Source: Escherichia coli
GTDB taxonomy: Bacteria > Pseudomonadota > Gammaproteobacteria > Enterobacterales > Enterobacteriaceae
Assembly (NCBI RefSeq): GCF_051903065.1
Contig: NZ_CP178438.1
DNA: 64,000 bases
Strand: one strand, 5' to 3'
Below, in pieces: positions 7,017-17,460 of the stretch; position 1 is the first letter of the stretch, and every line of letters starts with the position of its first letter. The notes under the pieces are model-generated. The model saw only the letters and a program-made list of their open reading frames with translations. It searched no databases and was not told where the DNA came from. A program made the position numbers and the translations under genes.

Positions 7017-8432
7017 GTGAAACAAAGCACTATTGCACTGGCACTCTTACCGTTACTGTTTACCCCTGTGACAAAAGCCCGGACACCAGAAATGCCTGTT
7101 CTGGAAAACCGGGCTGCTCAGGGCGATATTACTGCACCCGGCGGTGCTCGCCGCTTAACGGCTGATCAGACCGCCGCTCTGCGTGATTCTCTTAGCGATA
7201 AACCTGCAAAAAATATTATTTTGCTGATTGGTGATGGGATGGGGGACTCGGAAATTACTGCCGCACGCAATTATGCCGAAGGTGCGGGCGGCTTTTTTAA
7301 AGGTATCGATGCCTTACCGCTTACCGGGCAATACACTCACTATGCGCTGAATAAAAAAACCGGCAAACCGGACTACGTCACCGACTCGGCTGCATCAGCA
7401 ACCGCCTGGTCAACCGGTGTCAAAACCTATAACGGCGCGCTGGGCGTCGATATTCACGAAAAAGATCACCCAACGATTCTGGAAATGGCAAAAGCCGCAG
7501 GTCTGGCGACCGGTAACGTTTCTACCGCAGAGTTGCAGGATGCCACGCCCGCTGCGCTGGTGGCGCATGTGACCTCGCGCAAATGCTACGGTCCGGGCGC
7601 GACCAGTGAAAAATGTCCGGGTAACGCTCTGGAAAAAGGCGGAAAAGGATCGATTACCGAACAGTTACTTAACGCTCGTGCCGACGTTACGCTTGGCGGT
7701 GGCGCAAAAACCTTTGCTGAAACGGCAACCGCAGGTGAATGGCAGGGAAAAACGCTGCGTGAACAGGCACAGGCGCGTGGTTATCAGTTGGTGAGCGATG
7801 CTGCCTCACTGAATTCGGTGACGGAAGCGAATCAGCAAAAACCCCTGCTTGGCCTGTTTGCTGACGGCAATATGCCAGTGCGCTGGCTAGGACCGAAAGC
7901 AACGTATCACGGTAATATTGATAAGCCCGCAGTCACCTGTACGCCTAATCCGCAACGTAATGACAGTGTACCGACCCTGGCACAGATGACCGACAAAGCC
8001 ATTGAATTGTTGAGTAAAAATGAGAAAGGCTTTTTCCTGCAAGTTGAAGGTGCGTCAATCGATAAACAGGATCATGCTGCGAATCCTTGTGGGCAAATTG
8101 GCGAGACGGTCGATCTCGATGAAGCCGTACAACGGGCGCTGGAATTCGCCAAAAAGGATGGTAACACGTTGGTCATAGTCACCGCTGATCACGCCCACGC
8201 CAGCCAGATTGTTGCGCCGGATACCAAAGCTCCGGGCCTCACCCAGGCGCTAAATACCAAAGATGGCGCAGTGATGGTGATGAGTTACGGGAACTCCGAA
8301 GAGGATTCACAAGAACATACCGGCAGTCAGTTGCGTATTGCGGCGTATGGCCCGCATGCCGCCAATGTCGTTGGACTGACCGACCAGACCGATCTCTTCT
8401 ACACCATGAAAGCCGCTCTGGGGCTGAAATAA
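7017..8432 (+). CDS. phoA: Alkaline phosphatase PhoA (471-aa precursor, GTG start)
   Basis: Recognised signal peptide [21 protein letters not shown]; the ORF-track ATG at 6948 lies inside the Pho box, so the in-frame GTG at 7017 is the likely start. Confidence 0.95.
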
Positions 8433-13731: not shown

Positions 13732-15001
13732 TTCCTCGCCTTCCCCTTGAACGGGAGGGCATTTTTCTGAAATATCCTCTCTTTAACCCATAATAATATT
13801 TCCTTTGCTGCGATTTTTTCAATTTCCGATATATTCATAATTCATCAAGGTTGATATCAATATCATTGAAGATTATGAATAGAATTAATATATTGGTCAT
13901 CTGTATGGTCGTGTTTTTTATGACTGGCAATGCATGTGCCACAGAGTGGATCAGTAGCGAGGACCTTATCACCTCTGACTTTCATCTTATGACGGCAGAT
14001 GAGCGCAACGTGGTTAAAGCGGCAACCGACGATAGTATGGAAGCTGCTTATATGCTAAAAGATAATATCCGCTGGTATTATCATAATGGTAACCTATCAT
14101 TACCCGCTAACTTCAGCAATCAAAATAAACTGGTGGTGAACGGTAATTTAACGATTTCCGGCGATTATGATGATTATCTGTCAGGTAATGGTCATCTGAT
14201 TGTATTAGGTAATGTTATTGTCGATAACTTTATTAATCATGATTTCGCGTATGTCAAAGGACAGATGACAGCGAAAGGTTTAGTTTATGCTGATTACAAT
14301 GATCACAACTTTGAAGTGATGAAGGGAATTAGCGCGCGAGGCATTATTGTTTCCGATAAAGCAACGCAATTTGAGGTCATCAAAGCTGAGTTTTATATCA
14401 ATGAAGATGAAAGCGGTGAAGGATATAACTGGGATGAGAATATTCAAAAAGCCTATTCACTGGTGACTGCCGATCTTTATGATCACACTGAAATCGAAAC
14501 CGATAACATTTCCAATGCGTATCCTGACTATGATAGCGTCGCAGACAACATCGTTCAGGGTTTACCTCTTTTTTGCGATAAAGCCGCTCCTGAAATTAAT
14601 GAGAAATTAAAATGGATTGAAACGGGGAAACTCGATAATTTCCCAGCGAATAAAATAAAGCATCAAGATCCACTGGTGGCACGTTTTCTGACTCATACAG
14701 AGAGTTTATCACCCGCCGTTATGCTGCAACTGTTACAGCACCCCGATGACCAGACGCGTGAATCGATGGCGCAGTCCTGGCCCGCTCAACAGATGCATTT
14801 GCTTACCGATGAATTAATTAAAGATGAGGCTGTTGCCAGAGGGCTGGTTAAAAACAGTAATATTTCCGCCGATGTGAATAAAAAATTAATGTCTGTACCC
14901 GTCGAGAGCGTACAGCTGGAGCAGGCCAGACAGGATAATCTTTCTCCAGATATTGTTGCGTCGTTAAGTCATAGCCCCTTTCTCAGTGTACGCAAGACAT
15001 T

Positions 15002-15010
15002 ACTCAGCCA
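15002..15010. repeat. IS1 target-site duplication, left copy (actcagcca)
   Basis: Identical 9-mer directly flanks both IS1 ends. Confidence 0.9.
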
Positions 15011-15065
15011 GGTGATGCTGCCAACTTACTGATTTAGTGTATGATGGTGTTTTTGAGGTGCTCCA

Positions 15066-15341
15066 GTGGCTTCTGTTTCTATCAGCTGTCCCTCCTGTTC
15101 AGCTACTGACGGGGTGGTGCGTAACGGCAAAAGCACCGCCGGACATCAGCGCTATCTCTGCTCTCACTGCCGTAAAACATGGCAACTGCAGTTCACTTAC
15201 ACCGCTTCTCAACCCGGTACGCACCAGAAAATCATTGATATGGCCATGAATGGCGTTGGATGCCGGGCAACAGCCCGCATTATGGGCGTTGGCCTCAACA
15301 CGATTTTACGTCACTTAAAAAACTCAGGCCGCAGTCGGTAA
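15066..15341 (+). CDS. insA: IS1 InsA (transposition inhibitor)
   Basis: 91-aa [43 protein letters not shown]... recognised. Confidence 0.9.
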
Positions 15342-15763
15342 CCTCGCGCATACAGCCGGGCAGTGACGTCATCGTCTGCGCGGAAATGGACGAACAGTGG
15401 GGCTATGTCGGGGCTAAATCGCGCCAGCGCTGGCTGTTTTACGCGTATGACAGGCTCCGGAAGACGGTTGTTGCGCACGTATTCGGTGAACGCACTATGG
15501 CGACGCTGGGGCGTCTTATGAGCCTGCTGTCACCCTTTGACGTGGTGATATGGATGACGGATGGCTGGCCGCTGTATGAATCCCGCCTGAAGGGAAAGCT
15601 GCACGTAATCAGCAAGCGATATACGCAGCGAATTGAGCGGCATAACCTGAATCTGAGGCAGCACCTGGCACGGCTGGGACGGAAGTCGCTGTCGTTCTCA
15701 AAATCGGTGGAGCTGCATGACAAAGTCATCGGGCATTATCTGAACATAAAACACTATCAATAA
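15260..15763 (+). CDS. insB: IS1 InsB frame (expressed as the InsAB' transposase by -1 frameshift)
   Basis: 167-aa ORF in the -1 frame relative to insA, overlapping its 3' end. Confidence 0.85.
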
Positions 15764-15778
15764 GTTGGAGTCATTACC

Positions 15779-15787
15779 ACTCAGCCA
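15779..15787. repeat. IS1 target-site duplication, right copy (actcagcca)
   Basis: Identical to 15002-15010. Confidence 0.9.
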
Positions 15788-16927
15788 TTACGATTACGCC
15801 TGGCTGGTTCCGACTGCAGTGGCCGATGAGTTGATAAATAACGAAGACCCGGAGTTACGTGAAAGAATTACCGGAGCAGATTTAACCGCACAACAAGCAG
15901 TGATGTTGAGTAAAGATAAATCACTGAAAGTTCGTGAAGCATTAGCCCGGACGCTTACTGAATTAAAAATTACCCAACTGTCAGCAACCCTGCGTACAGA
16001 GGATATTGAACGTATCGCAGAACAAATGTATCTGGATAATAAAGAAAATAAAAATATCGTAAAAGCGTTATTGATAGCGTTGCCGGAGATGCGTCAACTG
16101 TCTCTGGCAAAAGAAGATGTGCACAATTTGCGCGAAGGTGCGCGTTATCTGACATCGAAGGACGTGATTAGTTATCTATTGACTCAGCATGATGTTCCCA
16201 CCGTCTGGGATGAGCTGGCACGCGATAAATTATTGCCGCTGGAATATAAGAAACAGTTATGGCAACGCACATTAAATTTAATGATGAGCAAACGGCAAGA
16301 AGATCAAGAGCAAGCCTACGAAGTACAGCTGGCGCTGATTGATAATGGTGTTGTTGACGAAGAGATGTTAAATAATGCCATTGATTTACTGGTTGATTTA
16401 CCCGCTGAATACCGCTATCGAATGCGTAACCAATTATTTGATAATAAAGATTTACCTTCCGGAATTATCAACAAACTCGATCAACAGTATCGCTTCAACT
16501 CTGACTGGGCGCTGTCTGTTGACAGTATGAAAAATAGCACCCGTAGGCAAAGTGAAAGAGGATTACACCGCTGGAACCGTGAGGATAGCGATATTTTTGC
16601 GGAACTGGCGACGATAAAAGATAAATCAGATGATGAATGGTGGCGTGCATTGCTGCAAAGTCGCAATGATCATTTGCGCCAAACGGCATTACGCAACGCA
16701 CATACCCCGGCGTCGTTGTTAACGACATTGACTGAGCCTCAGGATCGGTCGCTGGCTATTAATAATCCACAGCTGGCTGCCGATGTGAAAACGGCGTGGT
16801 TAAAAGAGGATCCATCATTACTCTTATTTGTCGAACAACCCGATCTTTCGCTGTTACGTGATTTAGTGAAAACCGGGGCAACGCGGAAAATTCGCAGTGA
16901 AGCGCGTCACCGGCTTGAGGAAAAACA

Positions 16928-17383
16928 ATGACACAACGTCCATGGAGCAAGTTACAGCGGGAGATCTATGACTTACTGACGCCAACGATCAACCTGCAAA
17001 TTCACTGTACCCGTTATCCCATGCGCAGCCAAAATGGTGGAAGCACCGATTTACCGCGTTATTGGATCACGTTGGATAAAAACGTGATCTGGGATTACCC
17101 GAAAGACTTTATTGCAGGTAACGGTGGAGTGCGTAATTTTCACGGTGAAACTTGCTGGTATCCTTACCTGACGGATATTTGTTCAATTTCTGATTTATTG
17201 CGTGAATATATTGATACCCCAAAAGCGGAGCTGTTAACAAAACAATTTACCAGCGATAAATGGGGGTTAGTGAATATTCTGCGTGCTGCTGACAGGCGAA
17301 TAGGGATGAGGCGATTAGATCAGTTACGGCGTAAAACGCATAATATTGCTGCGCTAAAAATTATTGCCCGCCGTAGCGAATAA
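16928..17383 (+). CDS. Hypothetical 151-aa protein, translationally coupled to the IS1-interrupted gene
   Basis: Start overlaps upstream stop (ATGA at 16928-16931); no family recognised. Confidence 0.55.
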
Positions 17384-17408
17384 TTATATCCCTGGTATGG
17401 CTTCGTAC

Positions 17409-17441
17409 GCCGGATAAGACGCGGCAGGCGTCGCATCCGGC
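17409..17441. repeat. REP (repetitive extragenic palindrome) element
   Basis: gccggataagacgcggcaggcgtcgcatccggc, typical E. coli REP. Confidence 0.65.
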
Positions 17442-17460
17442 ATTAAAGGAAAATCAGCAA

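Follow-up and report, generated by a model that had tools for sequence, protein, structure and literature searches.

The stretch between ppnP and rdgC in the Escherichia coli contig NZ_CP178438.1 (assembly GCF_051903065.1) was analyzed within a window of 64,000 nucleotides, whose coordinates are used below. In this window, positions 13,732 to 17,460 hold a large gene that is interrupted by the insertion sequence IS1, followed directly by a small intact gene. The large gene is referred to as DUF2773 or full-length ykiA and the small gene by its family name, SF0329, which derives from a Shigella flexneri locus tag. The comparisons described below show that the locus is an Escherichia accessory operon, old, low in GC and dispensable, in a copy that was inactivated when IS1 entered after codon 378, duplicating 9 bp, cutting the large protein inside its solenoid and leaving SF0329 intact. 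The two genes would be independently distributed accessory genes that came to share one operon in Enterobacteriaceae by chance, not a toxin-immunity pair. SF0329 would behave like an orphan-immunity cassette that spreads horizontally on its own, neutralizing an incoming toxin or its product, and the large protein would most likely work in the periplasm or after secretion, as a scaffold or decoy whose solenoid surface binds a protein or an envelope ligand. A probability of about 0.55 was assigned to this reading as a whole.

The disruption itself was resolved to the nucleotide. Two open reading frames (ORFs) on the plus strand, 13851-15032 and 15765-16931, are kept apart by a 768-bp element at 15011-15778, which has the same orientation as the interrupted gene. 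The element has the features by which IS1 is recognized, including a length of ~768 bp, imperfect inverted ends of ~23 bp (23-nt arms at 15011-15033 and 15756-15778), the frames insA (15066-15341) and insB' (15260-15763), and a perfect 9-bp target-site duplication, ACTCAGCCA, with its left copy at 15002..15010 and its right copy at 15779..15787. Related records label the element as an IS1-like transposase with programmed frameshift. The 5' part of the large gene (13875..15010, plus strand) comprises codons 1-378 plus 2 nt and covers the signal peptide, the beta-helix (residues ~62-180) and the start of the solenoid, and the 3' part (15788..16931, plus strand) covers the remaining solenoid. When these two parts were joined, leaving out the insertion sequence and one copy of the duplication, a 759-codon ORF was obtained that was 100% identical, with zero differences, to WP_175118533.1 ("DUF2773 domain-containing protein"), the product of the uninterrupted allele of E. 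coli 23CRST027, which also lies between ppnP and rdgC. The original prediction of one gene split by IS1 was therefore correct, its repair coordinates were exact, and the uninterrupted ppnP-rdgC alleles which it proposed to look for do exist in other Escherichia, such as 23CRST027. The predicted overlap of the stop codon with the start of a 151-aa ORF was also found, as the end of the large gene and the start of SF0329 share 4 nt (ATGA at 16928-16931). The SF0329 gene (16928..17383, plus strand) encodes 151 aa identical to WP_000194199.1 ("SF0329 family protein") and is the full-length form of K-12 ykiD. Our work thus showed that, through the insertion of IS1 and the duplication of 9 bp, the large protein is cut short after residue 378, within the solenoid, and that the SF0329 gene, itself undamaged, is no longer translationally coupled to a complete upstream frame. 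The junction of this IS1 was found in no complete E. coli genome searched. This absence, like the naming of the SF0329 family after an S. flexneri locus tag, would be compatible with a Shigella source. The interruption is routine gene decay.

The retention of both genes was counted in 5,426 complete E. coli genomes. Both genes were whole in 443 genomes, among which the strains listed for O157:H7, O55:H7 and O145 are found, while the body of the large gene was kept in 446 and the core of SF0329 in 920; the remaining genomes carried remnants of the K-12 type. The large gene almost never occurred without SF0329 (443 of 446 genomes had both), and SF0329 stood alone in about 470 genomes. In other E. 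coli strains, independent IS1 copies were found at different sites of the large gene (e.g. locus L002:2388-3085), which suggested that this AT-rich gene is a recurrent target of IS1. The GC content of the module was 41-44%, compared with 50-55% in its flanks. The ratio of nonsynonymous to synonymous substitution rates (dN/dS), calculated from two intact alleles with 6% divergence, was 0.18 for the large gene and 0.036 for SF0329, and 0.11 and 0.04 for aroM and ppnP, respectively. These ratios indicated that both genes are real and that purifying selection acts on their intact copies. The operon, which has a low GC content and has decayed widely, is ancestral to Escherichia, and both genes are dispensable at the species level.

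The comparison with K-12 explained the current annotation of this site, since K-12 ykiA and ykiD occupy the same position between ppnP and rdgC as the genes of the window. The ppnP-rdgC spacer of K-12 is 646 bp long and aligned with the intact locus in three blocks, which implied two separate deletions of about 1.9 kb and about 0.36 kb. The window retains full-length genes of which the large one is cut by IS1, whereas K-12 has suffered the two deletions instead. The K-12 pseudogene ykiA (b0392) preserves the final 113 codons of the large gene. The product of ykiD (b4732), with 27 aa, consists of the first 11 and the last 16 residues of SF0329 and arose by an in-frame deletion. These remnants (L003:3610-4031, equal to NC_000913.3 408609-409030) match positions 16590-17383 of the window. 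As ykiA is the C-terminal 113 codons of a 759-aa gene, the Pfam family DUF2773 models a pseudogene remnant. A tagged YkiD protein has been detected in K-12 (PMC6001520), and a promoter activated by BglJ-RcsB has been mapped upstream of K-12 ykiA (PMC3950696). Activation by BglJ-RcsB is all that is documented for ykiA, and the H-NS tests of that study did not include it (PMC3950696); judged from the low GC content, ykiA may also be silenced by H-NS.

The family and architecture of the large protein were then defined from homologues and a structural model. The Pfam model DUF2773 (PF10971) matched residues 679-759 with an i-Evalue of 4.6e-44 over all 81 model positions, so that the last 81 codons, 11% of the protein, are the sole stretch under this family. 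Only Escherichia-type relatives were returned by a word-indexed search, and an exhaustive HMMER scan of 1.84 billion representatives returned 169 clusters, 37 of them at E<1e-30. About 35 clusters were full-length, with 735-820 aa and 19-35% identity, e.g. in Tahibacter and Pseudomonas. The AlphaFold2 model, built from a 33-sequence alignment, reached a predicted local distance difference test (pLDDT) score of 90.6. It showed a low-confidence N-terminal helix at the predicted signal peptide (residues 1-22, with cleavage between MNRINILVICMVVFFMTGNACA and TEW at an A-x-A site), a right-handed, bactofilin-like beta-helix of ~110 residues (residues 68-176), and an exclusively helical region at residues 186-758, which forms an alpha-solenoid of ~570 residues of the LRV/HEAT type. 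A signal-peptide-like N-terminus was present in 24 of the 33 family members by a simple hydrophobicity criterion, and correction of the start codon added it in 2 more. The exported repeat product expected by the original prediction, with signal peptide, beta-strand repeats and LRV-like helical repeats, was borne out in all three parts. A lipoprotein reading was rejected, as the T-G-N-A-C before Cys21 forms no lipobox and the cysteine is absent in a 74%-identical homologue; cleavage by signal peptidase I after A-C-A is the favoured prediction.

The solenoid was closest to the Azotobacter vinelandii LRV protein (PDB 1LRV) and to PBS-lyase/HEAT-like solenoids, although the LRV repeat models (PF01816/PF25591) stayed below Pfam significance. 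Unlike 1LRV, the large protein is predicted to be exported, has no Fe-S domain and carries an additional N-terminal beta-helix. The beta-helix resembled that of the bactofilin BacA (PDB 2N3D / 6RIA) at the level of fold, with 9% identity. No Pfam bactofilin/DUF583 match was obtained, the protein does not qualify as a bactofilin, and acyltransferases with a left-handed beta-helix (LbH) and adhesin beta-helices scored as well as bactofilin. Because of its signal peptide, the large protein cannot be a cytoplasmic cytoskeletal element. Neither Pfam, NCBIfam nor PADLOC revealed a toxin, catalytic, Rhs/YD, PAAR, LXG, TPS/CdiA, MAFB or other trafficking domain, and the confident model left no catalytic or toxin domain beside the beta-helix and the solenoid. 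Taken together, export of the large protein through Sec and action by binding rather than by catalysis can be proposed with moderate confidence.

SF0329 is a very different protein. It matched NCBIfam NF049912 with 94.6 bits against a cutoff of 60 (residues 6-148) and Pfam PF25753 at 3.8e-22. It is basic, with an isoelectric point (pI) of 9.6 and 11 K/R among its last 40 residues, the helical region at its C-terminus being rich in R/K, and its sequence has no hydrophobic segment and no signal peptide, so SF0329 is predicted to be cytoplasmic. The AlphaFold2 model was confident and predicted an alpha+beta fold that no solved structure matches. Homologues fell into 542 clusters, and 50-68% identity was retained across Enterobacterales, Campylobacter, Leptospira, Photobacterium, Bacteroidales, many Bacillota, Spirochaetes and others. 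In an alignment of 30 sequences from several phyla, 28 positions were invariant, many of them polar. SF0329 matched no Pfam Imm family. None of 50,697 phage records contained it and plasmids gave only 2 matches, and for both proteins PADLOC was empty and PHROGs gave nothing meaningful; from these searches, an anti-phage or phage-borne gene was not evident. Literature searches on SF0329 and DUF2773 found no functional study, and both proteins match catalogued RefSeq/Pfam families of unknown function, where the original prediction had recognized no characterized family for either.

The genomic neighbourhood of SF0329 was surveyed in 80 species-representative loci, of which one had a large-family fragment and belonged to another Escherichia. 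Genes within 60 bp of SF0329 were almost all singletons that differed from locus to locus; the annotated neighbours included PurL, isocitrate dehydrogenase, acyl-CoA dehydrogenase, ArgD, GltX, pyruvate kinase, a histidine kinase, a recombinase and VanZ. As the neighbours differ in nearly every locus, SF0329 has no conserved partner. A cognate toxin near SF0329 was sought among the large upstream genes of 10 loci and the tight neighbours of 10 more and was rejected, because these 20 loci contained housekeeping genes, a recombinase, a VanZ protein, or genes with no family match. In many uncultured Campylobacter metagenome-assembled genomes (MAGs; loci L040-L096, at about position 8000), SF0329 lay in a conserved three-gene islet together with a 227-aa protein and a 177-aa (membrane) protein, neither of which matches NCBIfam, flanked by yggS/rseP-like genes and a methyltransferase. 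On the Photobacterium sp. TY1-4 plasmid NZ_CP099737.1 (L103, 23464-23901), a homologue followed a recombinase and a YggL-family gene and preceded a cluster of DEAD-helicase, DUF1998 and AAA-ATPase genes that looked like a defence system.

The cassette-like behaviour of SF0329 was most visible in two metagenome contigs, L008:2956-12270 and L009:1852-8756, where it was carried in integron-like arrays together with Imm10 and a DarG-like Macro gene. In both arrays a tyrosine recombinase, a 379-aa Phage_integrase protein, comes first and is followed by about 20 co-directional small genes. The GC content was 33.9% in L008 and 33.7% in L009. The motif GCCGRACATTA occurred in the intergenic spacers in 7 and 6 copies, compared with 0.3 expected, and one copy lay immediately 3' of SF0329 in each array. 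The Bacteroidales orphan-immunity clusters known as rAID-1 are defined, besides a criterion on recombinase identity, by at least 2 co-directional downstream genes, GC content of at most 41% and repetitive intergenic sequences (Ross et al., bioRxiv 10.1101/471110), and L008 and L009 agree with them in array, GC content and repeats, with SF0329 as a cassette. The window locus differs from rAID-1 in that ppnP and rdgC enclose just two genes there, and neither a recombinase nor an array is present, and most SF0329 homologues differ from it in being solitary. A fixed two-gene cassette of Macro and SF0329 was considered and rejected, as the repeat boundaries fit it in L008 but not in L009; the cassette boundaries thus give no consistent link between the Macro genes and SF0329. 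The L008 array also encodes a 150-aa protein (L008:8486-8938) with LRV-like repeats ("NPKLPIDLLKKL" and "D..IR"), whose likeness to the solenoid of the large protein is at the level of the repeat only (BLASTP E 0.007). In Paenibacillus the neighbours of SF0329 were SUKH-3, DUF2314 and Macro genes, and in Leminorella it lay in a run of small genes that included WGR-DUF4240.

Fusions gave a further indication. In an uncultured Bacilli MAG (L083:2162-3199, cluster P0278), SF0329 (residues 5-154) was fused in frame to a full domain of the NAD-dependent RNA 2'-phosphotransferase KptA/Tpt1 (residues 160-336), which was supported by NF002014 at 241.7 bits against a cutoff of 239 and by Pfam PTS_2-RNA at 2.7e-43. 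The cluster contains 44 sequences at 90% identity and was the sole KptA-fused cluster found. Another fusion, in L095, carries an unannotated C-terminal domain. The KptA fusion hints, with low confidence, at a link of SF0329 to NAD/ADP-ribose or to RNA ends, and the assignment of SF0329 as an orphan-immunity-type cassette protein acting in the cytoplasm is likewise proposed with low confidence.

The contexts of the large family were examined at seven loci found by exact look-up. Nothing was common to them: the neighbours were sprT/galP, a Sel1 gene, cytochrome c, pyruvate kinase/iPGM and others, and one large-family gene lay directly 3' of the Sel1-repeat gene. SF0329 was absent from all 5 of the 5 loci sampled outside ppnP-rdgC. 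In the Logan contig of another enterobacterium (L015:532-3377) the order ppnP, large gene, SF0329, rdgC is the same as in Escherichia, with 31% identity for the large protein and 79% for SF0329; the two genes are 89 bp apart and do not overlap. The large homologue in this contig truly has no signal peptide, with stop codons just upstream of its ATG.

These data were used to decide whether the two genes form a pair. Besides the arrangement of a large secreted-looking protein followed by a small overlapping ORF, which recalls the effector/immunity pairs of contact-dependent inhibition (CDI), Rhs and type VI secretion (T6SS) systems, little was shared with such systems: toxin and trafficking domains are missing from the large protein, and the two families show no conserved pairing. 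Of the features of polymorphic toxin-immunity loci, the small gene immediately downstream with the ATGA overlap was present, and a trafficking module, a C-terminal toxin domain and cross-genome co-occurrence were missing. The two families are paired only at ppnP-rdgC and elsewhere each is solitary. A pair is also disfavoured by location, as the large protein is exported or periplasmic by prediction and SF0329 has no signal peptide, and by very different evolutionary rates. Local history, and not an obligate two-component system, is thus the most likely reason for the common operon.

Several observations weigh against this preferred reading of two independent genes, with SF0329 as an orphan-immunity cassette. 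About 90 loci yielded no cognate toxin for SF0329. The majority of SF0329 genes stand alone among housekeeping genes, which would fit any small selfish or accessory gene equally. For an immunity protein, a cross-phylum identity of 50-68% and a dN/dS of 0.036 indicate unusual conservation, which would suit an enzyme or a nucleic-acid binder about as well. The asymmetry of retention in E. coli, in which the large gene hardly ever occurs without SF0329 (443 of 446) and SF0329 often does without the large gene, is what a toxin and its immunity protein would be expected to show; the 4-nt overlap implies co-expression; and the enterobacterial contig keeps the order of large and small gene at ppnP-rdgC despite a large protein of only 31% identity.

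A first alternative is that the two genes form a miniature poly-immunity islet, in which the solenoid protein would act against a periplasmic toxin and SF0329 against a cytoplasmic one, the two being linked by co-transcription only. Repeat solenoids are typical architectures of binders and inhibitors, a small LRV-like protein shares the rAID-like array of L008 (8486-8938) with SF0329, one large-family gene follows a Sel1-repeat gene directly, both genes are low in GC, dispensable and patchily kept, and the promoter belongs to the envelope-stress-linked BglJ-RcsB regulon. However, no large-family gene was found in any immunity array sampled, their contexts being housekeeping ones, the likeness to the array protein does not exceed the repeat level (E 0.007), 760 aa is large for an immunity protein, and no toxin is known. 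We consider this islet unlikely. The same estimate applies to a second alternative, in which SF0329 would be a nucleic-acid- or nucleotide-handling factor tied to NAD, RNA 2'-phosphate or ADP-ribose chemistry, with the large protein as unrelated cargo. This would agree with the 28 invariant and often polar positions in 30 sequences, the low dN/dS of 0.036, the pI of 9.6 and the 11 K/R in the last 40 residues, the in-frame KptA/Tpt1 fusion with its cluster of 44 sequences, and the DarG-like Macro genes in the same arrays, whose boundaries, as described above, do not consistently tie them to SF0329.

The original prediction had offered an effector/immunity module inactivated by the insertion sequence as one fitting explanation. 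In its full form, the large protein would be an antibacterial or host-directed effector and SF0329 its cognate immunity protein, so that IS1 would have put the effector out of action while its immunity gene stayed behind as an orphan. The part of this claim that stood is the appearance of the SF0329 family in immunity-type arrays; the part that did not is the effector, as the large protein lacks any toxin or trafficking domain in Pfam, NCBIfam and PADLOC, its model comprises only a beta-helix and a solenoid, and no partnership was found beyond ppnP-rdgC. The gene order, the ATGA overlap, the signal peptide, the presence of SF0329 in 443 of the 446 genomes with the large gene and its occurrence alone in about 470, and the order conserved in a second enterobacterium with a 31%-identical large protein all speak for a pair. 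Against it, five other genomes of the large family had no SF0329 nearby, 79 of the 80 SF0329 loci had no large-family gene, the large homologue of the second enterobacterium has no signal peptide, and a Sec signal by itself gives no delivery into a neighbouring cell. On balance, this pair is improbable. A variant, in which SF0329 would be a pan-phylum neutralizer with a new fold, directed at a shared toxin activity and coupled in Escherichia to a non-enzymatic, Sec-exported effector or sensor, is a long shot. If true, the locus would represent a new kind of two-component conflict module, lost by E. coli K-12 and Shigella, and the neutralized activity would perhaps be linked to NAD/ADP-ribosylation or to RNA 2'-phosphate/RNA ends, as suggested by the KptA fusion and the arrays. 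Finally, the reading of the ORFs as chance frames or long-dead, functionless pseudogenes, which the deletion or disruption of the locus in most E. coli and its disruption in the window might suggest, and which the original prediction would have conceded had no intact homologue existed, was refuted by a 759-codon frame intact in 443 genomes with a dN/dS of 0.18, by 169 large-family clusters (37 at E<1e-30) and 542 SF0329 clusters, and by confident AlphaFold2 models of both proteins.

The remaining features of the locus concern its borders. A terminator-like hairpin with an 8-pair stem, including 6 GC pairs, followed by the T-run ATTTTTCTGA, lies at 13738..13760 on the plus strand directly 3' of the ppnP stop codon, and therefore the module is set apart from ppnP. 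The AT-rich 5' region of the module (13761..13874, plus strand) is homologous to the region upstream of K-12 ykiA, of which 142 bp matched at 96.5% in the alignment to the intact locus. Between SF0329 and rdgC, which is convergent to it, the spacer contains a GC-rich imperfect palindrome resembling a repetitive extragenic palindrome (REP), GCCGGATAAGACGCGGCAGGCGTCGCATCCGGC, at 17408..17442, identified by eye only.

The original prediction ranked this locus as the strongest candidate for something undescribed in the window, which was an overstatement, since the locus is the known ykiA/ykiD site and both products belong to families named in RefSeq/Pfam. The new points are that ykiA, ykiD and DUF2773 are remnants of a larger module, that the large protein combines a beta-helix with an LRV-type solenoid, and that SF0329 has a pan-phylum, cassette-like spread. 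The overall significance is modest. The annotation of the locus is clarified, in that what K-12 keeps as ykiA and as the "small protein YkiD" is left over, after deletions, from an exported repeat protein of 759 aa and from the 151-aa SF0329, which bears on readings of YkiD as a dedicated small protein or of ykiA as a BglJ-RcsB target. The architecture of an exported beta-helix and LRV solenoid defines a sizeable uncharacterized family of 169 clusters. SF0329 is unusually conserved and horizontally spread, and its array cassettes, together with one KptA/Tpt1 fusion, give concrete hypotheses for this family.

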